A stretch of 32,285 bases of DNA from Jimgerdemannia flammicorona (lineage: Eukaryota): positions 1-32,285 of the forward strand of contig RBNJ01000356.1 of NCBI GenBank assembly GCA_003990765.1, in the 5' to 3' direction. Below are positions 7,571 to 32,285 of this stretch, in pieces. The position numbers were made by a program, and so were the translations under genes. How positions within the stretch are numbered: position 1 is the first letter of the stretch; each line of letters starts with the position of its first letter. The notes under the pieces were generated by a model. The model was not told the origin of the DNA. It saw only the letters and a program-made list of their open reading frames with translations, and did no database searches.

Positions 7571-7917
7571 CAAAGAAGTTCTACCAGACATGGAGGAAGG
7601 AGATGAAGAGGATACAGAAGTCTTCATGCACTTGGTGAACAAGAACAAGAACAAAAACAAGACACCCAAGCTCACAGATAAGCAGTGGTACAATAAGATC
7701 ATTGATGGCTATGCCCCTCAAGGAAGATACCCCCATGGTAAATGTACTGCTCTGAACACCTGAATAACTACTGGTCCTATATCAGTGAAGTCAGAAAAAT
7801 CTGCCAACAGAAATATGAGCAAGAAGCCACTAAAGCAAAAAGGAAAGCCAAAGAAGATGACCAGCCCCCTGAGCTTCAAGCTGACAGTGATGATGAGGAG
7901 GAATAAGAATCAGACAT

Positions 7918-8340: not shown

Positions 8341-8519
8341 TTATGCCACTACCAAGATTACCAAACTTGAGCACAAGAAAGACAGGGACCAGAATAAGCA
8401 CACATATACCATTGGAGAAAGCTTTCCTCTAGAAGAACAACTTCTCAAGATCCTGCACCAGAATGAAGAAGTACTTACTACAGACTTCAGGGATATCCAC
8501 AATCAAGAACCCAAGTACT

Positions 8520-9810
8520 ACTATAAAGTTGATACTGGTGATACCAAGCCCATCTACCAGAAAGCCAGATCTATACCACCTGTCTACAGAGAATGGCTGC
8601 AAGCAGAACTCAAGGAAATGAAAGAAGTCAGAATCATCAAGTAAGCTATTAGTCTCTGAGCTTCACCCATTGTCCTTGCCCCAAAGAAAGGAAGTAAGCC
8701 TGGAGAGTTTGCACCAAAACTCTGCATTGACTACAGGAAGCTCAATGCAATCACCAAGAAGGATAGACAGCCCTTGCCAAATATTCAAGAAATTCTTACC
8801 ACTCTTGGAAGTGAAGCCAAATACTACACTATCTTAGATCTATTCTCAGGCTTCTATCAGATTGATCTCACTCAAGATGCCAGTGAGAAATCAGTCTTCA
8901 TTATATCTAATGCCACCTATATCTACCTGTGAATGACATTTGGAATATGCAATGCCCCAGTAAGTTTCAGCAAATGATGAACAGAGTCTTCAGCAACAAG
9001 ATTGGAAAATGGCTCTTTGTCTATGTTGATAATGTGATCATCTTCAGCAACATTATACAGGAATATGTCAACTATATACAGCTAGCCCTCAAGAAGCTCA
9101 AGGAGCATAGCCTCTACATCAAGCCCAAGAAATGCAAGTTTGTAGCTCAGGAAATTGCCTACCTAGGACACCTCATCAACCAGACCAGAATCCATACAGA
9201 TCCCACAAAGATTGAGACTGTTGCAGCCTACCCAAGACCTAGAACAACTACAGAAGTTCATGCCTTTCTTGGACTGGCCAGCTATTATAAAAGATTCATC
9301 AAAGGATACTCCAACATTGCAGCACCTATCTATGAGCTACTGAAGAAGGAAACCAAATTCAAATGGACCAAGAAACCTTCAATAAACTCAAGACTAGGTT
9401 GATCCAAGTACCTATTCTCAGAAGACCAGATTGGAACCTAGAATTCATCCTGCAGACAGATGTAAGTGCTATAGATCTTGGAGCAGTCCTAGCTCAGAAG
9501 AAAGATGGACATAAATATGTCATCACCTATGCAAGCCAAGGTACCTATAGAGTAGAACAGAACTACAAGTCATGTAAGCTCAAATGCTTAGTAGTAGTTT
9601 GGGTAGTAGACAAGTTCCACTACTACTTAGCTGGGAAACACTTCACTGTTCAAACAGACCATTCTGCTCTTATCTGGCTATTCTACACTCTGAACCCTAA
9701 AGGAATATATGCTAGATAGATCTACAGACTGCAAGAGTATGACTGTACTGTTAAGCACTACTCAGGAAGAACCAATACCAATACTGATGTACTCTCAAGG
9801 ATACCCTGAA
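8520..9810 (+). pseudogene. pol: Gypsy-1 reverse transcriptase + RNase H
   Basis: ASPIVL, LCIDYRKLN, DLFSGFYQI, YVDN (eroded YVDD), YLGH, FLGLASYY, FILQTDVS, TDHSAL. Confidence 0.93.
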
Positions 9811-9834
9811 ATATCCCCATCAAGACTATTCAAT

Positions 9835-10576
9835 ATGAATAAGGAGTTATACTATGGATTAATCAGCTATCTTAGGCAGCAGAAGGTGCCCAACCATCTC
9901 AAACTCTAGACAATCACTATCATCAACCAGACTTGGAAACAGTTTAAACTAGACAATACTATACTTAGAAAAGAATGAAAGCTAGTAATATCCAAACACA
10001 AGAAGTATCAAGTAATGAAGGAAGTATATGAGCAAGGATACCTAGGAGGAACCAATACATATAATAAGGTAAGAAGAACTATGTATTAATCCAAAATAGA
10101 AGAAGACCTGTGCCAATATGTCAAAGAGTGTGACAAGTATCAAAAACAGAAATAAGATCAGTAAGACCAGGTACCCAGGTCATCAAGAATTGAGCCTATT
10201 CCCTTCCACCACATCATAATAGATATTATTAGGCCACTATTAGTAATACTATCAGGAAACCACTATATTATAGTTATTGTAGACCTCTTTACCAAATAGA
10301 TAGAAGCAGGAGTATTACAAGAAGCCAATGCTCTCTCTATAGCCAACTTCCTGCACTGAAAATCATCTGCCACTACAAGACACTGAAGCAAATCACAACA
10401 GACCATAGCATAGAATTTGTCAATGGATTCCATGAGATAATGTATCAGAAATACAAGATTCAGCACATCAAGACTACTATGTACCACTCTCAAGAAAATG
10501 GACAGATAGAAAGAACCAACAAGACCCTCAAGAATATCCTGGTAAAGATCTCAGAGATATATGAGAATTGGGATAA

Positions 10577-10612
<36 letters not shown>

Positions 10613-11065
10613 ATTAGGATAACTACCTCCCAACTGCCCTCTCTGTCCTATGAGATATATGGTCACAAAGCACACACTTTACCCCAAAAGAACTGCTCTT
10701 TGGAGAAGAAGATTCTGATAGAACCTCAGCTACAAATCTAGATCTAACTTAGAGACAGGTCAATGCAGAAATCTGGAGACTACACCAAATCAGGAAGAAG
10801 GCTGAAGATTACATCATCAAGTCACAAGAACTGATAAGAAAAAATGCAGAGAAGAATCACAAGACCCTAGAACTCATCCAAATTGAAGAAAAGGTCCTAC
10901 TATATTGAAATATGGTAGAAGCCTTATAGTTGTAAAAACTGGAGCCCAAATAGGAAGGACCTTTCTATATACAAGATATCAAGAGAACTACCTTCTGGCT
11001 TAGAAAAATCTCAGAGACCATACTGCCTACCATGGTATATAGGAACAGACTCAAGAAGTACTATG
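9835..11065 (+). pseudogene. pol: Gypsy-1 integrase, with GPF motif and no chromodomain, interrupted by a polyA insertion
   Basis: VKECDK(Y)QK, IDII.PL, VDLFTK, ITTD...EF, YH.QENGQ.ERTNKTLK, KLEPK*EGPF. Confidence 0.88.
10565..10624 (+). mobile_element. PolyA-only TPRT insertion with 14 bp target-site duplication
   Basis: GAATTGGGATAACT - A32 (10579-10610) - GAATTAGGATAACT. Confidence 0.85.
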
Positions 11066-11430
11066 AACCTATACAAGAGAAGCAAAATATGATGACTGCC
11101 CATGAGGTTCTAGTTTGCAAATTGTAACAGCATGTTCTGTGACCAGCAGACTATCTGTCTGGACCATTCTCTAAGGGATATAGCACCAGCAACTACTCAT
11201 CCATGAGACTTTCAAAGCTAGAGGAGTTCAAATCATCAACTGATTGGTCAAGATCAGAATCAGGCCCTTGCTCTATATGAAGGGAGCAACTTTTCATCAT
11301 TATGCCAAAATACAAAGAGAAGACATCAGCCCATAAATACCACTTTTTGACTCCTTGCCAGAGGTTATGGGATCAGCAAATTTTTCAGGACTGGACCAAT
11401 GAATAAGGACATTCAAGAAGATCCTTATTT

Positions 11431-11440: not shown

Positions 11441-11682
11441 TATAATGGTAACTTCAGAATGATGACATTAGTACAGGAGACAGCCTTTTCTTATAAGCCA
11501 CCAGATCAGAACACAAAAAGATCATATGGTATATAAGATGAGCAATAATGACCAACTATGAGTCATTGTGACCATAGTATAAGTATCTTGAGAAATATAA
11601 AAGAAGGATCAAGGAACTGCAGTAGCAGCAATCAACAAGACCCACCAATCCCAAAATAGCTCAAAGACTTACTACAAATAAA

Positions 11683-12524
11683 ATGCCTGCTACTCACCAA
11701 ACCTCAAGGTCAAGAAACTACCAAGATACCTCAGTTGAAGAAAGGATATTCCAAGATATCAGAAGAGCCATGAGGACCCACTCAAGAGGACTCCTAGTGT
11801 CAACCTGGGTACTGGTGACTCTTATCATTATATTCTCTATCACTATGAAATGGAAACAAGAATCACCATTGCTACTGAATGTCTCCAAATGTAGCAGGAG
11901 TATGAAATAGAAAACCTCCTCTACCAGAAGTTCCCACAGGCCAGCACTCAAGAGCTATAAGATACTACTCCCATAGATATATATGAAACAAAGATAGCTA
12001 AGAAGATCCATCAGATCTTCAGGCATGCACTATGGTTGATCTCCAACTTTGAGTATATTAGAGTCTCAGACTTCAGAGACCTATCAGCCTGATGTATCAA
12101 TGCACTAGAAGCCAGAGTGGTTATAGAAGCCCAGTCCACTATCACTCTTGACAGCAACAAAGTAGAAGACTTCTGGCATCCCATCCTCCAGAACAACCCA
12201 GACCAATTCCTGCAAGAATTGATCTCAGTATTCCAAGGCCCAAGCATCCAGATTAGACCTCCCCAAGACCCCACATTTGTCCCCTATTTTGTGGAAGAGA
12301 ACCTCATAGACTGGAGAGCTCCAGACCTCCTTATTCCCACCACTACTAAATGTGATGACATCATTGGTGATAACATCATCCCATGTAACATACATGAAAC
12401 ATGTGATATATACAAAACACATAATCTACACAATGATAACAAATTCACAGACCTTATCTCCTTCAAAGATATTCTGACCTCTGATGAGGATGAAGCCCCT
12501 ATAGTCTTGAACATTCTACTCTAA
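11683..12524 (+). pseudogene. LTR-encoded uncharacterised protein (~280 aa reconstructed)
   Basis: Starts MPATHQ. A 1 nt frameshift near 11785 is repaired in the copy at 21942-22766. Contains KIHQIFRHALW, homologous to the Gypsy-2 LTR ORF. Confidence 0.75.
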
Positions 12525-12537
12525 GGTCCTTTGGTGG

Positions 12538-12630
12538 TACTGAATTATGCTAGCACCAGCATTCTGATATGATACTGAATTATGCCAGCACTGGCATTCT
12601 GATGTGACACTAAATTATACCAGTATCCTG
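12538..12630 (+). repeat. ~35 bp tandem repeat (2.6 copies) in the LTR, candidate enhancer
   Basis: TACTGAATTATGCYAGCACYRGCATTCTGATRTGA units. Related short repeats occur at 21810-21925 and 19610-19680. Confidence 0.7.
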
Positions 12631-12752
12631 AATCTATATAACTATCAGTGCTGACCCTGGAACTTAGCAGTTTTTTCTGTTCTGGCATTTTATTTTAGTT
12701 ATTGAAATTTATATTTAGCTTTATATCTTAGCAACCATTGAATTATATTTTG

Positions 12753-12785
12753 TATAAATACCCCTCTTATTTCTTTTGAAATAAA
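12753..12785 (+). promoter_or_regulatory. Candidate LTR TATA box (12753) and polyadenylation signal (12780)
   Basis: TATAAATA then AATAAA. Both are retained in the LTR copies near 21655-21685 and 19450-19482. Confidence 0.55.
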
Positions 12786-14406
12786 GTTAGTCCACTCAGT
12801 TCCTCTCAGTGCAATATATACAATTCCTTGCAAGCAATCTAAGAGATAACAAGACAGTTTAAAGATAAGAAGTTTGAGGACTATAAGATCTTGAGAAGGC
12901 ACTCTAATAAGAACTTGCTTATAACAAACTTGAGTTAGTCTAAGAGATATACCTTGAAGAGAATCTGACATATTTGAAGGACTCAGCAATCACTATGTGA
13001 CAATACTCAGTAGTTACCAATTCTGAAGAATAGATTGTAGACTTTCTTGTTAATAATATGTAAGGTTCTATCAGCAGTAGTAACTACTTAGGTTTGTTAT
13101 ACTAAAGAGGTCAGAACTTTAAGTCTGTTGGCTATTTTCTCATTAATGAAATTACCCAAGACACTACTATCTAGTATAATCTTGACAGAAGCTTAATTAA
13201 TAAAAGCTTATAAAATAAGTAGTTTATCTGATCCAATAGTAGTAATTTCAATTATAGGAGATTTCCTTCTATTGACTCTTCATTAGATTAACTTATTAAT
13301 ACATGAGAAATAATTATTAATTATTTGAGAAGAGTATATTCTAATACTATGAGAGTATTGACCATTAGATATAAATCCATCTTCAATTTTTCTATAGAAT
13401 TGTTTCTCCTTATTTACAGTAGATTGAGCTAGAGCTTTGTTTGATAAGCCAAATATCTTAGATCCTCAAATAGTAGATAGTAGTTCAGAAACTTCCTTGA
13501 CTGTCAGAGTTAATTCAATTTTCTCAAATAGGATCTAGGTAATATAGTAATCAATAGAGATCTTAAATAATGTCTAACTATAGTTCCTAATAAGAATAAT
13601 AATTTTACCTGTATAATCTTCATTAATGACTCCTCTTTCTAATAAGAGTTCTTTTAATGCTAGACTGCTACAATAGCATATCCTTCTAATATATCCTTCA
13701 GGAATTTAAATACTAATTTCTATGTAGACTTACTTGACTTCTTGATTGAAAACTATAACTTCTTTAGCTACATATAGATTATATCTAACTGCCTCTTAGC
13801 TACCTTTGGTAGGAGTCATAGCTATTGTCCTTAACTTGATAAAGTCTAGTTTTTTAGTAGTCAGATTATTGAGATAATACAGAATAGTGATAGTTGCTTA
13901 TATTATAGTTTAAGATTTTTAATTAGGGTAGATACTGACTATGTATTCTGTCTTTTAGCAATAGAAGCATACTCTACTTCTTTTGAGTTTATTTCTTTCT
14001 CCTTCAGTGAGTTTCTTAAAGATACTTAGCTGAGTAAGTTCAGTATTTCAGATTATCCAAGAAGTAGATATAAAGGGAGCTTTAAATGATTTATACTTGG
14101 GTTCTTCATTTTTAGTCTATAATTTTTCCTTGTTATGAAATTGTTTTCAAGGTAGAATTGGCCCAGCTATTAGAATTTACTTAACCATGGTCTTGATTTT
14201 AGCCAGGTACTATTGTTGGTAATCACAATCAACTGAGTGTTCTTGTTCTTAGATCTTTCTTATGAGCTATTCTGGTAGTATATCAAATAAATAGTCTATT
14301 TTTATATTATTTCATACTTTATTATTAGTAATATATTCTAGACCAATAGTGTTCAGAAGTGACTCAAGTTTTGTACAAAAGGTTCTAAATTCTTTCTTAC
14401 TATATA

Positions 14407-16478: not shown

Positions 16479-16529
<51 letters not shown>

Positions 16530-17908: not shown

Positions 17909-19147
17909 AGTATAGAGTATAATAGTATTCTCTGAGTTTATATGAGTTGCTAGAGTAACTATTGTAGGTCTAATATAAGGGTCTGATAGATAATTGTCTA
18001 TTGTTCTATAGGTGTATTTTGTTCTAAGATAGATATATCTCCTTTAGCAATATATTCAGAATTGAATTTATGAGATACTCCTCTTCTTCTTCACTTTGAT
18101 CTTAATATAACTGGGTTTATTCAATATTAAAGTAAATGATATCTATTATATACTAGAGTTCTAGCTAAGCCTGCTTCTAGCTCAGAGTCTAATTGTTAAT
18201 AAAGGGTTTCTCTGGCTTCTTTTTTGAGAACATGGCAGGTCTTGAAATTCTGGAAATAGTAGTATAGAGTAGTCTTGGTTCTGATATGGTAATAGTTAGT
18301 AGAGTTGAGCTACTTGACTATAGAGACTTGGCTTTATAAGAAACTAAGACTAGGAAGATAGCTACTAGTTATCCTAGATTACTCAGATTTATAGAGCTTA
18401 TAAAACTCTTATTGAGAAGAATAAAAAAGACTTCTATAAGACCTTCTTTATCTTGACTTATGGAGTATAGAGCAAGAAGTTCAGTAAATAAAGTTTCACC
18501 TATCTGCTGATTTAATTGGAGTATTTATATATATATATAAAGCTTATCTCACTTGTTGTAAGTATGAAGGTCTAATTGTCCTTATACATTAGGTTCAATT
18601 TACTCCAGATTGTCAAATAGTTTGAGATAAATTCTAGTTCAGTAGTTGGGCTCTATACCAACTTATTGAAATTTCTACAGAGGGTTGTAGCTGAGTAAGG
18701 AAGCATTTTGAAGTAGAATTGGATTATAAACTGCTATAATTAAGTTGTAAGAGATTAAGTTATAAGAGAGTACTTTATTAGAGTACTATTATATAGTTCT
18801 AAAAGAGTTTTCAGGAAGTTCTGAATATTCTAAAAGACTGTTTTCTTAAGATCAAGATCAATTTTATATAGAGTATATTCTCTATACTTATTGATTTCAA
18901 GATTAGATTAATGTCTCAATCAAAGTTCTTTCTTGGACTTATTATAGATATTTAGAATTTTCTTTATTTCAGAAAGTTTAAGAAACTAAGACCAGCTGAG
19001 TTGATTTGGCATATTACTATAAAAATACCCAATTAGAAAATTTCTAGATCTAGTTAAGAGTAGAACCTAAATATAGTATAGATTTATTTACTATTCATAA
19101 TATTGCTATTGGCTAATACTAGGAGTAGTATGTAAAGAGATATTTAT

Positions 19148-20957
19148 TATCACATAGTGGGCACTAAGTTCTCCAAGTATGTCAGATTCTCTTCAAGGTG
19201 TATCTCTTAGATCAACCATAAGTTTCTTATAAGTAAGTTCTATTGGAATATCTTCTCAAGGTCTTATAGTCTTCAAACTTCTTATCTTTAAACTATTCTG
19301 TTATCTCTTGAATTTGCTTACTTGGAATTAAGTAGAGGACTGGAACTTCTGTACTTCTTAAGTAGTTGAGAACTTGAATACTTGAGTGTTTGAATACTTA
19401 AGTATTTTAATACTTGAGTGTTTTAATATTTGAGTATTTTAATACTGACTTTATTTCAAAGAAAATGAGAGAGGTATTTATATAAAATATAATTCAATGG
19501 TTGCTAAGTTATAAAACTAAATATAAATTCTAATAACCAAATAGATAAGGTACTTGAACATAGAAAACTTCAGATTATAAGTATAAATTTAAGTGTCTGT
19601 ACAATTGGTTGTACAAGATCAGAATGCTGAAATAATTTCTGACAATTACACAAGATCAGAATGTCAGAATAATTTCAACAGTTATATACAGAACTTAGAG
19701 CAAAATGTTCTGAATTCTGTAGACTTCATCTTCATCACTATTATCAAGGCTAGAGGTTAGAAATAGGATATCTTTGAAGGAAATAAGATCAGTAAATATT
19801 TCTGTAAGTATCTTGTCCATTTTATGCATTTTGTATATTTTGCACATTTTATGCATTTCATATATATCAATTAGTGAGATGACATCATTGCCAATAATAT
19901 CATCATGTTAGTAGTAGGGAGAGCAAGGAGATCAGGGGCTCTCTAGTCTATGATATTTTTCTCCACAAAGTAGAGAATAAAGGTAGGATCTTGAGAAGGT
20001 CTAATCTGGATACTGAGATCTTAGAATACTGAGATTAATTCTTACAGGAATTGATCTGGATTGTTCTGAAGGATGGAATTTCAGAACTCTTCTACCTTAT
20101 CACTCACTATTGATGATATTATCTCTGATAAAGTAGTTATCTAGAAAGAGTGGTTCTTGGATTATATCTCTCTATTTATTCATATAGTTGTATATTAGAA
20201 TAAAGTTATTATTTTACAGAATAGTGACATCTGTTTTATATACTGGATAGTGTATTGGTAGATAGAGAAGAAGTATATCATCTTCAATTTTATTAAATTT
20301 ACTATCAGCATATCTTTGGTAGATTATACATATATTATAGAGTTATAATAGACTGATAGTTGTTATTTATATTACTCATACTTAGAAGATAGAGTTATTA
20401 ATTCTATTTTAAGAGTTATCTGAAGATATAGATTATATTCTCCTATTTTTTCATTATAGTTGAAGTAGTTAGATATGAATGCAGATTAGTATTTATATCA
20501 GTAGTCATTATCTCAATAGATCTCATAAATAGTTATAAACTATTGTAAGTTCTTCAGTAAGATTGGCAGAGTAATCAGAGTTGGCAGAGATCCTTGGTTG
20601 AAAGTTATCTTAGTATCAGAGAGATTGTTGTCTTCTACTTCATTATTATTAAATTGGATTATATTGTAAATATCCTTTATGATATATCCTACTTGAGGCA
20701 TTTGTAGAATATGATAATTTGGGTATAGAAAGGATCTGTCTGTAGTTTAGATATACTTGATATATTTCTAGTTGAGTTCTTATACTATATTATCAATTTG
20801 ACTATAGATCAGAGTGACAACTATTTTAGTAATAGTGACTCAGAGGTAGAGAATAAAAGTACTATACTTATAGAAGAGTTCTTAGAGTTTATATATAATA
20901 AGTTTCTAGTATTGAGATATTTTAATAATATCTATATTATAGTGGTAGTTAACTATA
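19148..20957 (-). repeat. Divergent LTR related to Gypsy-1 (LTR-3); right boundary tentative
   Basis: 19148-~20105 matches the reverse complement of ~12150-13002. ATGCCT at 20701 and a GGAAGA|TATAG junction at 20957 mirror the Gypsy-1 PPT/LTR junction. Confidence 0.7.
19373..19444. repeat. 8 bp minisatellite, 9 units (YTTRARTR-like)
   Basis: cttgaata cttgagtg tttgaata cttaagta ttttaata cttgagtg ttttaata tttgagta ttttaata. Confidence 0.8.
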
Positions 20958-21447
20958 TCTTCCAGGAGGCAGCCAATCTGGTAGTAGCTTAAAATTTGTC
21001 TAATTTGATAGATCTCACTAAGTATGTTCAGAGTATTTCATCAGATTTCCATAAAGTAGAAAAGTGTTAAGTTATGGATATTCATAAGAGGCAGAGGTAC
21101 TGTAGCTCTGTTGATAATAGCATTCCAAATATTAGTATAAATATAGTTATAAACTTTAGTAGTTATAGCTAGGTATATGTTTGAAAGTTATGGTTTTTTT
21201 GTTTTATTATAGTTCTCTATTTTGACATACTATATATTTAGTATATATACTTTTGGTCTTGATTAGTAAGGTTTTATATTTATATATCTTATATTCTATG
21301 ACTTAAAATTAACTCAGCTTTGTGATCTATAACTTCAGTTTGACTTAGCTTTATAATCTTATATATAGTTTCCAGATTTGTTCTAATTGTAATATGTGAT
21401 TTTAGTAGCTTAGAGGTTATATACTTATATAAGAAGTCTATATATAT

Positions 21448-23008
21448 TATTACATAGTGGTCACTGAGTCCTTTAAATATATCAGATTCTCTTTAAGGTA
21501 TATCTCTTAAACTAACTCAAGTTTGTTATAAGCAAGTTCTTATTGGAGTACCTTTCCAAGATCTTATAGTTCTCAAACTTATTATCTTTAAACTATCTTG
21601 TTATCTCTTAGATTGCTTGCAAGAGATTATGTGTAAGTGAACCAGAACTGACTTTATTTCAGAGGAAATAAGAAGAGTATTTATACAAAATATAATTCAA
21701 TGATTGCTAAGATATAAAGCTAAATATAAATTCCAATAACCAAATAAAAATACCAGGACATGGAAAACTGCTAAGTCCCAGGGTCAGTACATATGGTTGC
21801 ATAGATTCAGAATGCTGGTATAATTCTGGTGATACAGGAAAATAGTGCTGGAATAATTCTGAGTCATATCAGAATACTGGTAGAGGAACAGCTGTTATAT
21901 AGGAAAAGAGTACTGGTATAATTCAGTGTAACTAAGAGACTTTAGAGCAGAATGTTTAGGACCATAGAGGCTTCATCTTTATCAGAGGTCAGGATGTCTT
22001 TGAAGGAGATGAGATCCATAAATATCTCATCTGTCTTGTCATCATCACATAGGTCATGTGTTTTGTATATGTCATGTGAGATGACATCATCACCAATGAC
22101 ATCATCATGTTCAGTAGAGAAATCAGAGACTCTCCAATCTATGAGATTCTCTTCCACAAAATAGAGAACAAATGTAGGGTCTTGGAGAGGTCTAACCTAG
22201 ATACTTGGGTCTTGGAATACTGAGATCAATCCTTGCAGAAATTGATCTGAGTTGTCCTTGAGGATAGGATGCTAGAAGTCTTCTACTTTATCACTATTGA
22301 GGGTGATAGTGGACTGGGCTTCTGTAGCCACTCTGGCTTCTAGTACATTGATACAGCAGGCTGACAGATCTCTGAAGTCTGAGACTCTAACATACTTCAA
22401 GTTGGGGATCAACTATGGTATATGCCTAAAGATCTGATGAATCTTCTTAACTGTCCTTACTTTATATATATCTATAGGAGTGGTATCTTATAACTCTTGA
22501 GGGCTGGCCTGTGGGAACTCTTGGCAGAGGAGATTTCTTATTTCATATTCCTACCATATTTGGAGGTATTTGGTAGTAATGATGACCCTTGTTTTCATTT
22601 TACAATAGTAGAGAATATAATGATAAGGGTCACCAGTATCTAGGTTGACACTAGGAATCCTTCTTGTGTGGGTCCTCATGGCTCTTCTGATGTCTTAGAA
22701 CATTCTTTCTTCAACTGAGGTACCTTGGTAGTTCCTTGACCTTGAGGTTTGGCAAGCAGCAGGCATTTTATTTGTAGTAAATCTTTGAGCTATTTTGGAA
22801 TTAGTGGGTCTTATTGGTTACTGCTACTACAGTTTCTTGATCCTTCTTTTATATTTCTCAAGATACCCATACTGTGGTTACAATGACTCACAGTTGGTCA
22901 TCATTGCTCATCTTGTATGCTATATGATCTTCTTGTACTCCAATCTGATAGCTTGTAAGGAAAGGCTATCTTCTGTACTGATATTATCATTCTGGGGTCA
23001 CCATTATA
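21448..23008 (-). repeat. Isolated full-length copy of the Gypsy-1 LTR (solo-LTR-like)
   Basis: Colinear reverse complement of 11441-13002. Termini are eroded to TAT...ATA. No PPT or internal sequence adjoins it. Confidence 0.9.
21942..22766 (-). pseudogene. Second copy of the LTR-encoded protein (825 nt, premature stops)
   Basis: ATGCCT at 22766 and C-terminus DLISFKDILTSDKDEASMVLNILL, matching 12117-12524. Confidence 0.72.
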
Positions 23009-25055: not shown

Positions 25056-26655
25056 TGTGGCGTTCATTATGTATAATGAACTTCGACTGCATGGCTCAAT
25101 GTGTGCCACTTGGTGAAGCACGCGATATATATAACTGAGTGCGTTGGTGACATTCGTGGCAGTTATGGGTCGATGGTCACGTGACAGGTCGTTCGATTTG
25201 TGCGGTAATAATAGCGGGAGGTCGTTCGATGATAGTGGGCTCAGGACGTCGATGGCTCAATTGTTTAGTGGAAAAGGGTGTTGTTGCTAACAGAGGGCGG
25301 TTACTTGAATTTATGCGGTGACGACGGGCTTGCTCTTTATGCGGTCAATTAAAGCGGGCGACGGTTTTGACTTTAAGCCGTTCGTGGCGCAGTAGGTTGG
25401 GAATCGGAGAAGCGGAGGTTGACGGCTCGCTCCTCCATCTTGGTTTAACTTGAAAGGTTCCTGGCAGTCGTTCGGGTCTTTGGTAGCGGTCTTGTATCCT
25501 TTGGCTGGGTAACTTGGGTTCCTTGGGTCTTTTAGCTGTGGTGCCGGGGTCTTGAATCTCGAATGGCGGTCGAATTGTGCGGTCCGAATGGCGGCTTTCC
25601 TTAGCGGCGGGTCTTGAACGTTTTCTTTCCATGGCAAGAGAAAATTCTTTAACTCAAACTTCCGAGCGATCCATTGCTCTAGGTTGTTATCTTGTTCTCA
25701 GAATTTATCCAGTCTCTTGGAGGCAGTGTGTTTTCTCTTTAAAGATAGGGACCTCTTGGGCTTCTTCTTGATTTGGTTCCCAAATGATGAGATGTGAATT
25801 GTGGCTGACAGAGTGGTGGGTGGTTGGGGTAGCTCCAATGAGTGCTTCTATGGTAATGGGCGGTCCTTCAAATATCTCCATAAGACTCATTAGATGACCT
25901 TGATGGTTGTCTCGGAGTGGGGTGGTATGGAAACCTGGTTGAGTAGGTTCGGTTTGTTGACTTCCTACAGTGACACGGTTGCTGCCAATAGAGTTGGCTA
26001 CTTCAGATTCTATCCAGTCTGCATCTTCAGTTGAGAGACGAGCAAGACTTCCAGCGGTTACTCCTTGTAAGTGTGCTATAGCCCAGGGGATATGGCGGAA
26101 GATTTGGTGGACACGGAGGGCTCTCTTGATTAGCTGGCTAGTGGTTAACAACTTGGTAATGAGGCCTTCCCAGTCATCTTCTTGGGTTTCATTACGAAGA
26201 TGGTGTCCAATTTCATAGTCATACCAGAGGGTCATTTGTTCAGTAGTGTCTTTGAGCTGTTGGGTCATTATATACCGGTAGTTGATGAAGTATCCAAGGT
26301 CCTCGGTATAGAAGTTCAAGTGTTCGGAAGTATCTGGGCGCCAGATGGCCTTCTTGATAGCTTCAAAGATCAGAGTCTTTGGGCCGGGCAAAGGGGTAGA
26401 GCAGCAGGAGGTCTGGTTGGATTGGCGAATGGGAGGCATTGTGTGGTGGGTACTTGGTTCTTTGGTGCTGATCCCTGAGGCAGAGTATGGTTCCTTAAAT
26501 AACATGGTCTTCATTTTGGCTCGGATTATCTTGTCTTCTTTTGGTGAAATCACTTGATGGATTAGGCTGGTCACCAGTTATCGCACCATAATGTCGTCTG
26601 ATCTTATAGTCACAGGGTACTCCGAATTTGGATAGGGTCAATTGTAGATGTCACA
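25056..26655 (-). repeat. Gypsy-2 3' LTR (~1.6 kb, inferred from a single copy)
   Basis: Starts TGTGACAT after the PPT-like AAGGGGCAGA and ends ACGCCACA (imperfect terminal IR) at the compositional boundary. Confidence 0.72.
25705..26439 (-). CDS. LTR-encoded uncharacterised protein (244 aa from MPPIRQ; open frame extends to 26574)
   Basis: Uninterrupted ORF, homologous to the Gypsy-1 LTR ORF (IFEAIKKA, WYDYEI, RVHQIFRH.PW, LMEIFEGP). Confidence 0.78.
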   Translation of the reverse strand: MPPIRQSNQTSCCSTPLPGPKTLIFEAIKKAIWRPDTSEHLNFYTEDLGYFINYRYIMTQQLKDTTEQMTLWYDYEIGHHLRNETQEDDWEGLITKLLTTSQLIKRALRVHQIFRHIPWAIAHLQGVTAGSLARLSTEDADWIESEVANSIGSNRVTVGSQQTEPTQPGFHTTPLRDNHQGHLMSLMEIFEGPPITIEALIGATPTTHHSVSHNSHLIIWEPNQEEAQEVPIFKEKTHCLQETG

Positions 26656-26980
26656 TCTGCCCCTTGCAAAATTAGAGCCGTTCTTGGCAGTGAGGGTTAC
26701 ACAGAGTTGGGTGGTCTTAACTCCAGAGATGAGCAGAATGCTGGCGCATTTGTGAGGACTGGCCATCCTTGTCTAGGGCGAGGGCTCCCATAGTCGCGGC
26801 TGGGGGTTCGAACCCATCAGAAATAGTATTACTTGTAATCTGAGGCAATTTCTTAGTAACAATATCTGTCACGTAGATGGGCTTGAGTCTGGTTCCAACG
26901 TTGTTGGCTTTCTTGAGTTCCAAGTGAAACATCCGTCGTATCTCCAGCGGAGGCGACACAGACAGAGTGAATAGAATTGT

Positions 26981-28201
26981 TCAAATGCATTTTGCTTCTC
27001 TTGAGTAGTAGAGTCTTATGCAGTTGTGATGTATCTTGGTCTTGAGTATAGCTCCATCCAAGGTCTTGAGTTGATAAGTGTGGTTCGAGGATACTTGGTG
27101 TATGAGATAGGGGCCTTCCCATTTTGGTTCAAGCTTGGCACTCCAATTTCCTTCTATGATGGTATGGTACACCAGAACCTTTTGCCCAATGAGCAGGGGT
27201 TCGAGGTCGGCTTTGCAGTCATAGTACTTCTTTTGGTGTTCTTGTGCCTTGGCGATAAATCCTTGTGCTTGCTGGCGTATGTCATGTAACCAGGTGATCT
27301 CTTCTGTAACTCATTTTGACAAATCTAGCTGGACTGGTTCAGTAGGATCTTGTGCTTCTCAGCCATACACCAAGTAGAAGGGGGTCTGTTGGATAGCGGT
27401 TGCCTTAGAGGTACGGATGCTGAACAGAATTGCTGGTAGATAGATATCCCAGTTTAGTTGATCTCTGGTTCTACTGAGACCTTGCTTGATGGTCTGGTTC
27501 ATTTGTTCAGTGAGTCCATTCGCCTGTGGGTGATAGGCTGTTGTTGGTCGTAGCTTGATCTTGAAGTTGCTTGCAAAGGTCTTCATGGCTTGGTTGACGA
27601 ATTCTCGGCCTTGGTCTGTAATGATTTCCTTGGGCACACCATGGCGGCTGAAAACTTCATCATACAGGATCCCAATAATTGTCTGAGCATCAGCAGTCTC
27701 AATGGCAAAGGCTTCGGGCCATTTTGTCAAGTGGTCTTCAATAGTGAGAATGTAGCATCTTCCTCAGCTGGTTACTGGTAGGGGTCCAATAATGTCTATT
27801 CCCAGTCTTTGAAAGGCTCTGACTGATGCTGCGATCGGTATCAATGGTGCTCTGTCGGTAGGCTTTTGTTGGTATCTTTGGCAGGTATCACATTGTTGAA
27901 TGTGCGTTGAAATTTGTTTTCTCATCTTGGGCCACCAGTATCACTTCTTGATTCTTGCAATTGTGGCACCAATTCCTCGGTGTGCATTTTGGTCATGATT
28001 TGTTATCAGGATCTTCAATATTTCTTCTTCTCTTGGAACTCGGGTGTACTGCTCTCCTTCTACTCTCCAAAGTTCGCCATTGCCTTCTTGGAATTTCTTG
28101 AAATTCCTTTGGATAAACAACTTGTGGGCTGGTTGGATTCCTTTCTTGAAGCTTCTATGGTGCAGGCTCCAGGTGAGGGCAAGGTGCAATTCTTGGTTCA
28201 T
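26981..28201 (-). pseudogene. pol: Gypsy-2 integrase with GPY motif
   Basis: HDQNAHRG...CDTCQ, LGIDIIGPLP, TKWPEAF, ITDQGREF, YHPQANGLTE, KLEPKWEGPY. Confidence 0.93.
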
Positions 28202-28269
28202 TTGGGTGAGCAGGAAGCAGCCTTCTCTTGTGGGGGCTCCTTCCCTTCTTGTTGGTTTCGCAGGGTTCT

Positions 28270-29560
28270 TAACAGGGTATCGACATTGGAATTCTTAGCA
28301 CCTTTCTTGTAGACAATAGTGAACTGATATTCTTGCAGAGACATAATTCATCTAGCAAAGATTCCTGAGGGCTCCGGCTTATTGAACAACCATTATAGAG
28401 CTTGATGATCAGTGATGAGGGCAAATCTCTTTCCTAAGAGATAGTGTCGGAAGTGGTCCACAGCCCAAACTACAGCTAGGCATTCCAACTTAGTGGCTCC
28501 ATAGTTCGCTTGTGTTTCATTTGTGGCCTTGCTAGCATATTCGATAACATGCTCCCTCTTCTGGTCATCTTGCTGAGACAGAATTGATCCAAGTCCTAAG
28601 GCTGAGGCATCAGTTGCCAGGATGAATGGTTTGCCAAAGTCTGGTCGCACCAGGACAGGGGCTTCGGTAAGGGCCTTCTTGAGTAGGTCGAAAGACTTTT
28701 ATTGTTCTTCTTTCCAGTAGAATGGTTGGTCCTTCTTGGAGATATCTTGGAGAGGTACTGCCTTATCGGAAAACCTTGGGATGAATCGTCGATAGTAGGA
28801 TGCCAGCATAAGGAAAGATAGAGTCTCCTTTGCTGAGGTCGGGGTTGGGTAGTTCTTGACTTTCTCTACCTTGCGGGGGTCAGCATGTGTTCCTTGAGCT
28901 GAGACAACATATCCCAGATATTCGACTTGATGTTTTTCGAAGAAGCACTTGGCATTGAGTCTGAGTTCTGAATTTCAAATGGTATTGAATACTTCATGGA
29001 GGTCTTGCAAATGCTGCTTGAATGTCTCAGAGTAGATGATTACATCATCTATGTACACCAGTACATTTCTTCCAATGAGGTCTCGGTAGACATAGTTCAT
29101 CATTCATTGGAATGAGGCAGGTGTATTGCAGAGTCCAAAGGGCATTCGTAGGTATTCGTACTGTCCTCGTCTGGTGATGAAGGCCATCTTGCAGATATCT
29201 TCTTTGGCAATGGGTATTACTTGGAATTCTTGGAACTGGTCAGTAGTGGTCATGTACTTGGCTTTTCCGAGGGCATTGATGAGGTCATCAATTCTTGGCA
29301 GTGGGTAGGCGTCTTCTGTGGTGACTTTGTTGAGTTTTCTGAAATCCACAACCAATCTCCATCCTCCTTTCTTTGGTACTATGATTGCTGGTGAAGCCCA
29401 GGGGCTTGATGATGGTCTAATGACTCCATTTCATAGCATTTCATCTATGTGTTGTTGTTCGAATTCAATCAGATGATGTGGTGTTTGGTAGGGTCGTTGT
29501 CGGATTGGTCTTGCATCTCCAGTATGTATAGGGTGTTCTCCATATTGATATGGTGGGAAG
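28270..29560 (-). pseudogene. pol: Gypsy-2 reverse transcriptase + RNase H
   Basis: SSPWASP, VDFRKLN, DAYPLPRID, RMPFGLCN, VYIDD, YLGY, LATDASALG, TKLECLAV, TDHQAL. Confidence 0.95.
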
Positions 29561-30095
29561 TTATTATATGTGGTGGTAAATATATCTTTGTACTCCTCTA
29601 TCAACTCCTGTATTTGTTGTTGCTGGTCTTTGGTTAGAGTTGTCTCAATGTCGACAGCTTTGATTGCTGAATTTGCTGAGTCTTCCTCCCTGGTACCATC
29701 AGTCTCACCGGAGAGGGCTTGCCATTTCCCAAGAATTCGAAGACTTCTTCTTCGTAGGTGTCTATCAGTGGTTCAAAATATCCCAGTGTTGTTCCCTTGG
29801 GGATAGTTATCACTTCGAAGCCCAAGTTTCTGATAGGGATGTGGATCGGTGACATCTGGTCATGAATTCATTCTTCAGCCAGGAGGATGTGGTATTCCTT
29901 TTGAAGCTCCAGTGATGGTGCAAATATCAAGTTGTTTGCTTCTACTGGTAGGTGCACATCTAGGCCTTTTTGCTGGTAGGGCTGCAGGAGGATGTCTTCT
30001 CTTGCTTGGATTGGGTGGCAGATATGGGGTCTCATTTGTCGAAATTGAGCAACTGTTGCCAAATGAGCCTCGATAGGTGGTGTCCGTAGATTTCT

Positions 30096-30510
30096 ATTGG
30101 TGCTTCCAAAGTCTCCTTGTCCTCTGTTGGTATCTTCTAGTTGGTCTACCTCTTGAATGGTTGGCTGTGATGTCTTGATAAACAGGATTTGGCAGATGGC
30201 TTCCATAGGACTGAAGAATCGGCTGGTTCTACTAGAATTGCGGATAATGACCTTCAAGGGACCTTGGTAGTCCTGATCGATGACTCCTCCTTCTACTGTG
30301 ACTCCTTTGGTTGCCAATGAGGATCTTGAGGCCAATTGTCCATAATGCCCAGGTGGTATAGCGAGTGTGATCTGTAGGTCAAAAGTCCTGGTACTTCTGG
30401 GTCGGATTCTTGCTTGGTAGGGGAGGCAGAGGTCATAGCCAACTGATCCTTCTGTTTGTGCAAGAGGTGGCTGTGCCCAGGGGGAAAGCAGCTTAATCTG
30501 GATAATTGGT
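30096..30510 (-). CDS. dut: Gypsy-2 dUTPase domain (all five motifs, uninterrupted)
   Basis: GSVGYDL, ASRSSLA, GGVIDQDYQG, AICQI, RGQGDFGST. Confidence 0.93.
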
Positions 30511-30569
30511 TGGGCTTTGAGAAATGGCACTTCAGCTGTTGCCATTGCAGGTGAGAAGTCCATGCGCTC

Positions 30570-31560
30570 TGGTTTGAAGAAAGGTCAGTAAGCTCCTGTC
30601 TTTGAGTTTCTTGTGTAATTGAATCCAGTCTTTCCTAGAGGGTCCAGAGCTTCCATAAGGATGAAGGTAAGGTTGACACCTTCTTTTCCTTGATGAGGCA
30701 ACAGTACCAGCAGATGATGGCAAGAACCTCTAATGGTAGGTCCCAGATAGAGGTCTTGCTCTTGAACTTGCAATCTCCTTCATGGTTGATTTCTTTGCAC
30801 TTCCGACAGGCCCAGCGAATTCGAGGTTCTTGCAGGGTGGGATCCTTTCTCTTGACTCGGCTCTTGTAGGCATCTTCGCTGAGGTGAACATCTCGATGTT
30901 CATACCAGTAGCAGGTAAAGGTTTTTCCACAATCACAATGTCCCTTCTTGACAAAGTCTTCATTTCGCTGATTGATCTCCTTACTGGTAGGGAATCTCTT
31001 CCAATACTTGTCATAGGTGGGCTGTGTGATCTGAAGGGCCCGAGTGATAGTGTAAGAGCTGTTGCCTTCTCCTTCGATGGTGAGGGACTCGAATGTTTGG
31101 CGGCCAAGGATCTTCTGTCCTTCCTTATAGGTCTTCTTGAAGGTCTTCGGGGTTGGAGGTTATATTCGGCTGTGGGATGGTGCTTGCTTCAATTCGTCCT
31201 TGTCATCAATTTCTGGCATTGGAACCTTCTTGAGATCCAGGATTCAGCAATTGCTACAATCATCTCTTGGTGAGTGGAAGCTGATGAAATGTTCACATAT
31301 GCCTCGACGAAAGGCTCGCATGATCCGATTTTCTACCAGTGGTGGTGGTGGTTGAGCAGAAGGTCCTGCAAACTCAAGTGCTGCCCTTGCATTAATGGCT
31401 CTATCAATGCTTTCTTCCAGGCCTTCAACACCAATAACTCCAATGAAAGAGTCTTCTTGTTTGCTTTCTTGATCCCTTGGGGCATCGAAATTACTTCCTA
31501 GTTCTTGCAGGAAATTGGCCTCGCTTTCATCCTCAGTAGTAGTGGAGGTGTCACCATGTC
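30570..31560 (-). other. Pol insert between protease and dUTPase with three Cys/His motifs and an F-box-like motif
   Basis: In the protease frame: CEH-x10-CSNC, CDCGKTF..EHRDVH, CRKCKEINHEGDC, SIWDLPLEVLAIIC.Y. Confidence 0.55.
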
Positions 31561-31619
31561 CTTGCTATTCTGTTTCTGAGGCTTGATTCGTCTTTTTGGA
31601 TAATCCTTTCGAGTCAATG

Positions 31620-31970
31620 GGCACCTTGTGCTTCTGTCCGTGAATGGAGAAGACCAGGAGTTGTTTCTTGATATCTACATTGGCTCCAACTCGGCTTAAC
31701 CAGTCAGTTTCCAGGATCAGGTCATAAGAGGTTGCGGGGGTCACGACGGCTTTGGGTACATTGAGGCAGGCCTTTCCAACTTGAATGGGGATGTCTCTGA
31801 CAAGTCCAAGGGGTGTGGAAGCTGATCCGTCGGTCATGATAACTCTTGCTTTGGTTCCTTCATCTATTCCCCATCCGATTTGCTCCAACATCCTTTAGGT
31901 GATGATGCATACTACTGCTCCAGTATCGATGAGAATTCTAGCATTTTCACCATGCACTTTTCCATTGGCG
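31620..31970 (-). pseudogene. pol: Gypsy-2 aspartic protease domain
   Basis: ILIDTGAVVCII, one TAA, then MTDG and YDLILETDWL. Confidence 0.9.
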
Positions 31971-32285
31971 AGTCTTGTAGATTGATGTTCATGTCGCTGG
32001 CTCTCATGGACCATGTGGATAGTGCTAGATTCTTGAGTGTGTAGTCCTTGGACTGGAAGTCTCTTGGTATCTTCCTTGGCTTCTTTCAGGAATTTTCGCC
32101 TGACCTCTGGTGCATTCTTGAGGACTTGCTCAACTGTAAGACCAGCATTCTGTAGGCGGATATGTTCCCAAAGTGAGGCTGCTGCATGGGGCTTGCTGCT
32201 TCTTCGGTGTCTTGGTCCCTTGGGGTGTAGTCTCTCATTCCTGATGGGCATTTCATCAGCTGAAGATTCTATGCTCATATGCTCA

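Follow-up and report, generated by a model that had tools for sequence, protein, structure and literature searches.

The DNA analysed here, referred to below as the window, comprises positions 1 to 32,285 of contig RBNJ01000356.1 (forward strand, 32,285 nucleotides) from Jimgerdemannia flammicorona (GenBank assembly GCA_003990765.1), an AT-rich eukaryote. It holds the remains of two LTR retrotransposons, Gypsy-1 and Gypsy-2, with additional copies of the Gypsy-1 LTR, and an open reading frame (ORF) of a common family accompanies both LTR types. The relevant features are as follows, L001 being a related locus on a metagenome contig:

5940..11270, plus strand: Gypsy-1 internal region (gag zinc knuckle, PR, dUTPase, RT, RNase H, integrase), degenerate
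11441..13002, plus strand: Gypsy-1 3' LTR, copy A, 1562 bp, delimited by repeat families and by alignment with copy B
11596..11603, plus strand: TATAAAAG box (TATA-1), candidate promoter of the ORF, 87 nt upstream of its ATG
11683..12524, plus strand: Gypsy-1 ORF remnant of copy A, interrupted by 3 in-frame stops and by a single 1-nt frameshift near codon 35
12753..12785, plus strand: TATAAATA (12753) followed by AATAAA (12780), candidate core promoter and poly(A) signal, which would mark the U3/R border
19140..20104, minus strand: Gypsy-1 LTR copy C, 5'-truncated within the ORF, its 3' end as in copies A and B
21445..23008, minus strand: Gypsy-1 LTR copy B, about 85% identical to copy A and solo-LTR-like (both ends, no pol upstream)
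21942..22766, minus strand: Gypsy-1 ORF remnant of copy B, a single frame with 6 in-frame stops
25056..26676, minus strand: putative Gypsy-2 3' LTR, about 1.6 kb, laid out by analogy with Gypsy-1
26439..25705, minus strand: Gypsy-2-type LTR ORF (ATG 26439, stop 25705), 244 aa
26740..26800, minus strand: block DNA-conserved with bases 1-60 of L001, probably where the pol frame reaches its C-terminal end, shortly ahead of the polypurine tract (PPT)
26981..32285, minus strand: Gypsy-2 pol (PR, dUTPase, RT, RNase H, integrase), in many short frames, running off the window

The two elements are colinear by tblastx, and the order PR-RT-RNase H-integrase is that of Ty3/Gypsy. In Gypsy-2 the Pfam matches follow one another in pol order as RVP_2, dUTPase (E 1.5e-29), RVT_1, RT_RNaseH_2 (8.8e-35) and rve (8.9e-13), with the dUTPase domain (PF00692) at 29868-30584, between PR and RT; PF00692 is likewise matched in Gypsy-1, at 8030-8644 (E 1.7e-14). 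On these domain matches, both are classed as LTR retrotransposons of the Ty3/Gypsy group (Metaviridae) that carry a dUTPase between PR and RT. A comparison of the dUTPase ORF with longer proteins gave a single match among 710 candidates, a product of the springtail Allacma fusca at 42% identity, too remote a match to point to a host.

Only one LTR per element lies within the window (the 5' end of Gypsy-1 has been removed by a GC-rich LINE at about 5850 and no 5' LTR is present, while the paired 5' LTR of Gypsy-2 falls outside), and therefore a position inside the LTR cannot be read from paired LTRs. The first-pass annotation of this DNA had placed the ORF entirely inside the LTR of both families, which is now supported independently for Gypsy-1 and is extended to Gypsy-2 by analogy. 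The ranges 11683-12524 and 21942-22766, formerly called the Gypsy-1 LTRs, proved to be the ORF remnants, the repeat unit spanning 11441-13002 and 23008-21445. This unit appears to behave as a true LTR, as several sequence features suggest. Specifically, copies A and B resemble each other only across 11441-13002 of copy A, a PPT-like purine run (AGGAGGAAGA, 11431-11440) directly abuts the start of copy A, and copy B has both ends of the unit with no pol. Public contigs from four sequencing runs (X1-X3 among them), the runs having been chosen with the Gypsy-2 LTR, contain copies with unrelated left flanks, two X3 contigs departing from the window at 23010 into different, non-purine flanks, and seven X1 contigs extend past 13003 with one identical PBS-like sequence that starts with TGG. 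The unit does not begin with TG; no target-site duplication was recognisable around copy B, and the PBS-like motif showed no excess over chance in the window (5 matches at up to 3 mismatches, 7.2 expected).

The same DNA could be divided differently, which would make the ORF an ordinary internal ORF3 that follows pol and precedes a true LTR of shorter length. In Gypsy-1 that LTR would run from about 12535 to 13002 (TG...CA), and the 1.56-kb unit would be the 3' end of the element plus its LTR. According to the accessible text of PMC5408684, an ORF3 placed between pol and the 3' LTR is the usual arrangement in LTR retrotransposons. Repeats around the ORF also fit this division: in L001 a 33-nt direct repeat with a purine run stands before and after the ORF (170-202 and 1481-1513, 82% identical), has weaker counterparts in Gypsy-2 and Gypsy-1, and could have the real PPT in its downstream copy. 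Gypsy-2 has a 13-nt repeat at a spacing of 1300 nt (1311 nt in L001), which is at chance level alone, and the Gypsy-1 segment after the stop begins with TGGTAC..., like the TGGTAAC... from 11446 (5 nt inside 11441), and ends in ...GTGACA. We nonetheless rate an internal ORF3 as unlikely. Copy B and two independent contigs start at the purine-tract boundary base of copy A but have unrelated flanks, and a common left end with unrelated flanks argues against random truncation. Moreover, no purine run precedes 12535, no 468-bp solo copy occurs in the window, and copy C is cut within the ORF, not at 12535.

For Gypsy-2 the limits are set by composition and similarity. Its LTR would start either at 26655 (TGTGACA..., after a purine run at 26665-26656) or, by similarity to the start of the Gypsy-1 LTR, at about 26676, and would end with ...GCCACA at 25056, where the composition steps to AT-rich DNA and where one X2 contig links to an unrelated repeat. 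The ATGCCT start of the ORF, which had been put at 216-256 nt into each LTR, does lie in that range: 242 nt inside the repeat unit 11441-13002 in Gypsy-1, and 216 or 237 nt in Gypsy-2, depending on the boundary. The pol frame of L001 runs open from the edge of the contig to a stop at 150-152, which leaves about 220 nt to the ATG of the ORF, itself in a different frame; for L001, as for Gypsy-2, we only infer the LTR start. With the ORF downstream of the PPT and inside an LTR of about 1.56-1.6 kb, it would be duplicated at each transposition and retained in solo LTRs, as had been proposed, and the presence of the ORF in the solo-LTR-like copy B supports this.

The ORFs of the two families are homologous. 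A tblastn search of the window with the Gypsy-2 ORF gave two matches interrupted by in-frame stops, one at 22649-22185 (E 1.2e-11; 160 aa aligned at 28% identity) and the other at 11799-12254 (E 6.8e-10; 157 aa at 27%). In Smith-Waterman comparisons with 500 shuffles each, the Gypsy-2 ORF scored 151 against the copy-B read-through, in which X was placed at stops (shuffle maximum 55, z 25), and 201 against P0008, an intact Gypsy-1-type protein of 247 aa (shuffle maximum 56, z 37); none of the 500 shuffles reached either score. The alignment with shuffling statistics that had been proposed as a check is thus significant, and the homologue reported earlier in the Gypsy-1 LTRs, along with every colinear protein block quoted between the two ORFs, was recovered. 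The earlier remark that the two LTR types have no obvious DNA similarity also held, blastn finding none between the Gypsy-1 and Gypsy-2 LTRs. The ORF stands at the corresponding place in the two colinear elements, with an identity of about 32% in the ORF and 30-49% in pol. These comparisons support the ORF as a real, conserved protein-coding gene common to two lineages with pol 30-49% identical. Long-term constraint is implied, since protein similarity persists where LTR DNA similarity does not, and since several full-length members are intact.

All copies of the ORF in the window are nevertheless dead or truncated. The Gypsy-2 ORF, described at first as an intact frame of 244 aa, is present on the minus strand (290 codons when counted from stop to stop in the ORF listing of the window) but is truncated at its C-terminus: full-length relatives have 324-331 aa, so about 80 C-terminal residues are missing, and P0002 aligns with it over residues 1-245 at 78% and not beyond. 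Public contigs that diverge from the window at 25735 (two in X1, one in X3) run on into the family tail. Between the window ORF and P0012 there are 50 amino acid differences, half of them (25/50) single C>T or G>A changes in the window copy, and the Gypsy-2 ORF here is best described as a truncated, deaminated, dead copy that has lost its acidic tail.

The Gypsy-1 ORFs of the window are pseudogenes with 3-6 stops, decaying neutrally. Copy A retains 68% identity to P0008, and its frameshift near codon 35 is absent from most other copies in the public contigs; of copy C, 20140-19922 still matches residues 125-197 of P0008. Copies A and B diverge by 17.5% within the ORF and by 14-17% in the flanks, their differences are distributed over codon positions as 52/34/58, and 90% are transitions. 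The earlier proposal of a selected accessory gene is supported by implication for the family, which is conserved across lineages with intact environmental members, and fails for the window copies, which the divergence of the ORF relative to its flanks shows not to be under selection. Neutral decay here, together with the short direct repeats around the ORF, as after a cassette insertion, would also suit a passenger, i.e. a captured fragment of a host gene that has no role in the element and is decaying everywhere. That explanation is very unlikely. The position of the ORF is kept across lineages at 30-49% pol identity while the non-coding LTR DNA has diverged past alignment, intact ORFs of 247-342 aa occur in several lineages in environmental data, and a search of 1.84 billion representatives brought up no homologous host gene.

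Contig depth in X1 varies along both elements. Bins in the Gypsy-1 LTR reach 715-745 as against 520 in a bin that is two-thirds internal, and bins in the Gypsy-2 ORF reach 144-183 as against 26-63 for pol, a pattern compatible with LTR copy number, although contig depth cannot rank the parts of a gene and the runs had been selected with the Gypsy-2 LTR; we give this pattern no evidential weight.

All 20 proteins of the family derive from environmental assemblies of JGI/IMG or ENA. NCBI and UniRef contribute none, and the suggested link to an expanded family of hypothetical proteins in arbuscular mycorrhizal fungi accordingly found no backing (0/20). A scan of metagenome contigs with the Gypsy-1-type alignment produced 196 pattern matches and one locus, L001, and the same scan with the Gypsy-2-type alignment produced 64 pattern matches and no relatives; viral contigs (two scans) and a collection of genome contigs yielded no relatives. 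At the protein level, 0 of 13 family members matched any Pfam-A model at E<=1, the Sag, Nef and foamy-virus Bel families included, and a PDB sequence search returned no match at E<=10. Judged by these searches, the family is a small and previously undescribed orphan.

Structure prediction points to a helical domain followed by a disordered tail. The AlphaFold2 model of the L001 protein is all-helical over residues 21-160, with 10-residue block means of pLDDT between 69 and 96, is disordered from residue 219 (pLDDT 27-36) and has no predicted membrane segment; the model of the Gypsy-2 window ORF is poor (pLDDT 47.5). The tails contain 19-28% D/E and have a net charge of -11 to -26 in six of the seven proteins examined, the window copy retaining a 49-aa stub. 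Being acidic, disordered and furnished with bulky hydrophobic residues, the tail is activator-like by composition only, and its motifs may be akin to those of SUMO interaction or of activation domains. With a pI of 5.7-6.5 the helical domain is not basic, which argues against a simple DNA-binding transactivator. The Foldseek comparison that had been suggested for an AlphaFold model found no fold relative of the L001 model: the best E was 0.57 against the PDB and 0.056 (TM 0.15) against BFVD, and with VIA-align none of 48161 chains reached Z>=5, the highest Z being 3.6. In the ESM Atlas, P0016 is present with a poor model (pLDDT 0.36), which gave no usable feature match and a structural TM of at most 0.26. 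On the predicted models, the helical domain of about 150 aa is therefore confidently modelled and has no detectable match in these fold collections.

Three weak VIA-align rows over residues 67-156 (Z 2.9-3.3) are the DNA-bound SopB and VirB domains and sigma-F. They lie far below the noise level of the method for helical models and offer no more than a lead towards a helix-turn-helix.

Candidate signals in the LTR bear on where the ORF lies relative to the transcript. The Gypsy-1 LTR has just two TATAAA, at 11596 and at 12753, respectively 87 nt before the ATG and 229 nt after the stop at 12524; besides that at 11596, the TATAAA at 12753 and the AATAAA at 12780 are the only others of their kind. 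By these DNA landmarks the whole Gypsy-1 ORF falls after the LTR start set by the PPT and before the candidate core promoter, and TATA followed by AATAAA is the classic arrangement of the U3/R border in retroviral LTRs. The assignment to U3 made in the first-pass annotation is favoured by the position of the stop ahead of the downstream TATAAA, but it is not proven, because a second TATAAA lies upstream of the ORF. The ORF of Gypsy-1 is most likely in U3, upstream of what would be the TATA/AATAAA pair of the LTR core.

If the upstream TATA were instead the main promoter, the ORF would be in the LTR but in R, genomic RNA would carry it at both ends, and each LTR would in addition yield a short LTR-only mRNA ending at the AATAAA. 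A canonical TATAAAAG does precede the ATG by 80-87 nt in Gypsy-1 (it is kept in copy B, at 22853) and in L001, where it is the sole TATAAA and sits 80 nt before the ATG; in Gypsy-2, TATTTAA is found at 26501, 62 nt before the ATG. Many family proteins are on contigs of 1.0-1.6 kb, a weak point in favour, as metagenome contigs often have such lengths anyway; P0014 and P0006 are encoded on longer environmental contigs (19.4 kb and 4.8 kb). However, R would have to be about 1.1 kb long, an exceptional length, TATAAATA then AATAAA after the ORF (12753, 12780) has the classic U3/R layout, and L001 begins in pol and so is not an LTR-only transcript. A location in R is therefore improbable.

The account we favour, and hold to be somewhat better than an even bet, is that the ORF is an accessory ('ORF3-type') gene residing in the LTR of a dUTPase-bearing Ty3/Gypsy clade, most likely in U3, with a presumed expression and regulatory role and with dead copies in the window. 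Under this account, reverse transcription would copy the ORF to both ends of each new insertion, and solo LTRs would keep it. Transcription of the ORF could start from the TATA box that precedes the ATG by 60-90 nt and end at the poly(A) signal of the LTR, or the ORF might alternatively be expressed from a subgenomic RNA. In the product, a short, conserved linker rich in proline joins the new helical domain of about 150 aa to the strongly acidic, disordered tail. The protein is probably neither an enzyme nor a structural protein, and we tentatively suggest, as a possibility short of even chances, a protein-binding regulatory adaptor, e.g. one that serves its own LTR as an acidic transcriptional activator or that counteracts silencing by the host.

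A more far-reaching version, which we consider distinctly unlikely, would make each LTR a self-contained gene with TATA promoter, ORF and poly(A) signal. Its product would act as a feed-forward activator in the manner of Tas, or else as a silencing antagonist; recruited via the short motif that recurs before and after the ORF, it would drive both the ORF and the genomic promoters, so that hundreds of full and solo LTRs together would form a dispersed family of trans-acting helpers scaling with dosage. If true, a regulatory circuit of the complex-retrovirus kind would have arisen independently in a Gypsy element that lacks env.

If the favoured account of an LTR-resident accessory gene is confirmed, a gene is doubled with each insertion, outlives its element in solo LTRs and seeds the genome with promoter-plus-gene units. 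These would be raw material for (i) dosage-dependent self-regulation, (ii) interference between related elements and (iii) domestication by the host. The family would also offer a concrete, testable case of simple retroelements gaining regulatory accessory genes.

Coding sequence within LTRs is chiefly a trait of the complex retroviruses (sag, nef, bel/tas). A literature search, with subscription journals largely outside its scope, did not find an LTR-internal ORF as a conserved feature of Ty3/Gypsy elements in the accessible texts, and almost all of the literature retrieved on an 'LTR ORF', as far as its accessible text goes, concerns MMTV sag. Sag resembles the Gypsy ORF, on the account favoured here, in being a complete ORF within the LTR, so that both LTRs carry it. 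Expression of sag does not depend on gag-pol, and its product is a membrane glycoprotein of a vertebrate retrovirus that acts on T cells, whereas the Gypsy ORF family has no match to it in Pfam, its model contains no membrane segment, and the element is env-less. The nef gene of HIV/SIV, likewise accessory and 3' in position, extends with its coding sequence into U3, but only part of it lies there, no Pfam match connects it with the Gypsy ORF, and its biology is unrelated.

Also comparable are the bdelloid-rotifer retrotransposons Vesta, Juno and TelKA, described in the accessible text of PMC5408684 as dUTPase-bearing LTR retrotransposons with lineage-specific ORFs 3' of pol, many of which have no known function and form separate expression units. 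Furthermore, a figure legend in PMC2864245 marks an 'add. ORF' and a dUTPase between PR and RT in a basidiomycete element. Among the ORF3 types named in the accessible texts for bdelloid and fungal elements (env-like, GDSL, DEDDy, TM, coiled-coil), none matches the Gypsy ORF by Pfam or PDB sequence. The bdelloid ORF3s are extra ORFs beside gag and pol, for which the accessible text of PMC5408684 gives no position relative to the LTR, whereas the Gypsy ORF lies after the candidate PPT.

The foamy viruses offer a comparison of layout. No sequence or fold match links Tas to the Gypsy ORF, and Tas binds DNA whereas the Gypsy helical domain is slightly acidic. The bel genes overlap U3, and Tas has an acidic C-terminal activation domain. 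In the accessible parts of PMC13220597 and PMC4929722, tas/bel1 and bet are 3' accessory genes with an internal promoter, and Tas activates both that promoter and the LTR. The Gypsy ORF family is like Tas in that it, too, combines an acidic tail with a candidate TATA box of its own.

The LTR ORF, an open frame in Gypsy-2, is an unusually placed accessory gene of an LTR retroelement and represents a new protein family. It runs on the minus strand from an ATG at 26439 to a stop at 25705, encoding 244 aa (290 codons from stop to stop). When used as a tblastn query against the window, it finds two homologous frames in Gypsy-1 terminal units at 27-28% identity (22649-22185, E 1.2e-11; 11799-12254, E 6.8e-10), so that a homologous ORF is present in both LTR types, as the first-pass annotation had claimed, together with every one of the colinear blocks listed there. 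The shuffling statistics proposed for this comparison gave z-scores of 25 against the read-through of copy B (with X at stops), 37 against P0008, 42 against P0006 and 23 against P0019 (the last three being environmental proteins), and in no comparison did any of 500 shuffles reach the observed local score. Judged by these alignments, the homology across the two LTR types is real and far above chance. Between the LTRs themselves blastn finds no DNA similarity, in agreement with the initial impression.

The window is eukaryotic repeat DNA with a background of ~28% GC, and contains the following elements.

Elements in the window (coordinates, strand or orientation, identity)
1-5850, minus: GC-rich LINE-like element, RT motifs at 740-1192
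about 5940-13002, plus: Gypsy-1, degenerate Gypsy element (Pfam domains)
14402-16022, -: Tc1/mariner-like DNA transposon (DDE_3 domain)
20104-19140, inverted relative to copy A (11441-13002): Gypsy-1 terminal unit, copy C (repeat and alignment)
23008-21445, inverted relative to copy A: Gypsy-1 terminal unit, copy B (repeat and alignment)
32285 down to about 25056, minus: Gypsy-2, second degenerate Gypsy element, extending beyond the window edge

Both Gypsy elements have the order PR, dUTPase, RT, RNase H, integrase (Pfam) and are colinear; by tblastx their pol regions share 30-49% identity, and the pol of Gypsy-2 is split into many frames. For the dUTPase ORF, the sole named relative is a product from a springtail (42% identity). 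Gypsy elements with a dUTPase are described from basidiomycetes and bdelloid rotifers (PMC5408684, PMC2864245), and in Entomophthora, according to a preprint, dUTPase domains are enriched alongside TE-related retroviral protease domains (10.1101/2023.09.13.557621). The LINE-like element, a non-LTR retrotransposon of 50-60% GC with strong strand skew and long upstream ORFs containing internal repeats (4645-4729 / 5497-5581), adjoins Gypsy-1 and cuts it short at its 5′ end, in 28% GC surroundings. The Tc1/mariner-like transposon is bounded by terminal inverted repeats of 245 bp (14402-14646 / 15778-16022, 91% complementary) and carries a minus-strand DDE_3 transposase frame (14650-15306) and an additional frame (15307-15561). 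Two unidentified repeats, 16337-17670 (34-42% GC, with a long T run at its start) and 18338-19004, have the highest summed contig depth from sequencing run X1 within 11001-31000 (800-950; ~390); neither yielded a relative of the LTR ORF. The stretch 23010-25000 is AT-rich (28% GC) with an unusually strong GC skew (+0.34 to +0.42), and the long degenerate minus-strand frames at 24207-24981 resemble a heavily decayed coding element.

The window contains just the 3′ repeat of each Gypsy element, and the LTR boundaries were therefore set without paired LTRs; contigs of four public runs, X1, X2 and X3 among them, were aligned to the window. Copies A and B can be aligned from 11441 to 13002 and nowhere else, and the right end of copy C coincides with theirs. 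The ORF lies 3′ of the candidate polypurine tract (PPT): in copy A a purine run occupies the ten bases before 11441, as expected of a PPT. Copy B has no pol upstream and an unrelated left flank. Two X3 contigs depart from the window at 23010, the left end of copy B, into flanks that are not the window's, not purine-rich and mutually different (agreement 0.65), and seven X1 contigs run beyond 13003 into the same 15-nt sequence, which contains TGG and is a candidate primer-binding site, as would be expected after a 5′ LTR. By definition, any DNA 3′ of the PPT ends up in both LTRs. The Gypsy-1 ORF (11683-12524) begins 242 nt inside the terminal unit, and in Gypsy-2 a purine run (26665-26656) is followed by TGTGACA..., which places the ATG 216 nt from the LTR start, both distances falling in the 216-256 nt first estimated. 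An alternative Gypsy-2 boundary ~20 nt further upstream is a better fit to the Gypsy-1 LTR start; the other end of Gypsy-2 is ...CACA at 25056, where AT-rich DNA starts and one X2 contig crosses into an unrelated repeat. Counting against an ORF inside the LTR, no target-site duplication is visible in the flanks of copy B. On balance this location is likely for Gypsy-1, and somewhat less so for Gypsy-2. At 26742 in the minus-strand element, six contigs (five from X1, one from X3) keep the pol-end block and then switch to another sequence with a long A run, an indication of a sister subfamily whose 3′ end or LTR is different.

The left boundary common to three independent Gypsy-1 copies also bears on a different placement, in which the true PPT could be a repeat copy downstream of the ORF, leaving an ordinary internal ORF3 (an extra ORF 3′ of pol). 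That boundary argues against it; what favours it is L001, the sole related DNA locus retrieved, a metagenome contig of 1535 nt whose ORF (376-1251, 291 aa) is intact and is flanked on each side by one copy of a 33-nt direct repeat containing a purine run (170-202 and 1481-1513, 82% identical). In Gypsy-2 a 13-nt repeat (26688-26676 / 25388-25376), at chance level taken alone, has nearly the spacing of L001, and in Gypsy-1 a similar short motif occurs just inside the LTR start (11453-11468) and 70-85 nt past the ORF stop (12597-12610), the latter adjoining 35-bp tandem repeats. All three lineages have a short direct repeat on either side of the ORF, spaced ~1.1-1.3 kb apart and weaker in the window than in L001. 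This flanking repeat could be a duplicated polypurine/LTR-start segment left by ORF capture, or a regulatory site placed before two promoters. The 35-bp units, two to three in tandem (12535-12604), directly follow the Gypsy-1 ORF stop and vary in length in one X1 contig (joint 12525-12574). Just 5′ of the PPT, 26800-26740 (minus) and L001 1-60 share ~47 nt at the DNA level (roughly 80%), in lineages with accessory proteins of about 31% identity; this block can be read as the last part of the pol frame, with a His/Cys-containing peptide.

Within the LTR, promoter and poly(A) landmarks suggest a more precise position. The Gypsy-1 LTR has exactly two TATAAA and two AATAAA. The upstream box, TATAAAAG, is 87 nt before the ATG and kept in copy B; L001 has a single TATAAA 80 nt before its ATG, and Gypsy-2 a TATTTAA at 62 nt. 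The downstream box, TATAAATA at 12753, lies 229 nt past the ORF stop (the ORF indeed ends upstream of the candidate TATA, as originally described), with AATAAA 27 nt later at 12780. A TATA box followed by AATAAA is the layout typical of the U3/R border in retroviral LTRs. If this downstream pair, a candidate genomic promoter and poly(A) signal, is read in that way, the ORF would be in U3.

Three kinds of search yielded 20 related proteins in total: a word-indexed search of 5.8 billion clusters, phmmer against 1.84 billion representatives (8 matches at E<=0.001) and a profile search (6 matches). Every one of them derives from an environmental assembly in JGI/IMG or ENA; NCBI and UniRef contribute none, which leaves the suggested link to a family of hypothetical proteins in arbuscular mycorrhizal fungi unsupported. 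The 20 form at least four lineages: a Gypsy-2 type (P0002, P0012, P0016; full length 324-331 aa), a Gypsy-1 type (P0008, P0018; 247 aa, 68-69% identity to the window remnants), the L001/P0005/P0017 type and P0006 (342 aa), and a distant P0011/P0019/P0020 type. No Pfam family was matched by any of 13 members at E<=1, and no PDB sequence by the family profile. In the AlphaFold2 model of the L001 protein (mean pLDDT 63, pTM 0.53), residues 21-160 are predicted to be an all-helical domain (10-residue block means of pLDDT 69-96), and the tail is disordered from residue 219 (27-36). Fold matches to this model are at noise level (PDB by Foldseek, E 0.57; BFVD, E 0.056; VIA-align best Z 3.6, none of 48161 chains at Z>=5). 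A near-neutral N-terminal part (pI 5.7-6.5) precedes a tail that, in 6 of 7 proteins examined, has 19-28% Asp+Glu and a net charge of -11 to -26, with interspersed Trp/Phe/Leu/Ile.

The ORF copies in the window are dead. Copy A has one frameshift, absent from most other X1 copies, and 3 in-frame stops, and copy B has 6; the divergence between the two is 17.5% in the ORF and 14-17% in the LTR sequence around it, with ORF differences of 52/34/58 by codon position and transitions at 129 of 144 (90%). This is neutral decay, mostly through deamination-type changes. Only residues 1-245 of the full-length relatives are matched by the Gypsy-2 ORF, and the remaining ~80 aa are encoded nowhere in the window, in any frame; at 25735 two X1 contigs and one X3 contig depart from the window and carry on with the family tail. 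The frame described as intact is thus open, but lacks its C-terminus. It differs from P0012 at 50 amino acids: one C>T or G>A change in the window copy accounts for 25 of these, a change in the opposite direction for 9, and neither for the other 16. Because the ORF is truncated and C>T/G>A-biased and pol is broken, the open frame is largely luck and no evidence of selection in this copy. Between lineages, RT and RNase H are 40-49% identical and non-coding LTR DNA is unalignable, yet the ORF retains about 30% identity in one frame, of the same order as PR and dUTPase, and intact ORFs are kept in at least four lineages. A similarity outlasting that of the LTR DNA points, indirectly but soundly, to long-term constraint; the proposed selected gene is supported in this sense, and not for the neutrally decaying window copies. 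Related copies in the runs have less A/T than the window copies across 11001-31000 (X1 against the window: A>G at 448 and T>C at 355 places, versus C>T at 212 and G>A at 249). Together with the 90% transitions, this bias suggests that the host has a RIP-like process or deamination linked to methylation.

As to function, the upstream TATA box may be the ORF's own promoter, driving its expression from within U3, and each LTR could yield a 1.1-1.2 kb mRNA. Acidic activators typically combine a folded domain that binds protein with a disordered acidic tail dotted with hydrophobic residues. The product may have a regulatory role, for which that of an adaptor is a tentative prediction, and the short motif repeated 5′ and 3′ of the ORF might be its docking site; an antagonist of host silencing is an equally possible prediction. 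By sequence the family belongs to none of the systems compared (sag, nef, bel, ORF3s; Pfam), and no description of a conserved gene embedded in a Gypsy LTR was found in literature whose coverage mostly excluded subscription journals. The closest working analogue is foamy-virus Tas, which is the product of an internal promoter and activates both that promoter and the LTR (PMC13220597, PMC4929722). By position, the LTR ORF is closest to MMTV sag, described as an ORF within the 3′ LTR (PMC2118998), to nef and to the foamy-virus bel genes. By host element, its closest counterparts are the varied ORF3s of dUTPase-carrying bdelloid LTR retrotransposons (PMC5408684) and also the 'additional ORFs' of fungal Gypsy elements (PMC2864245).
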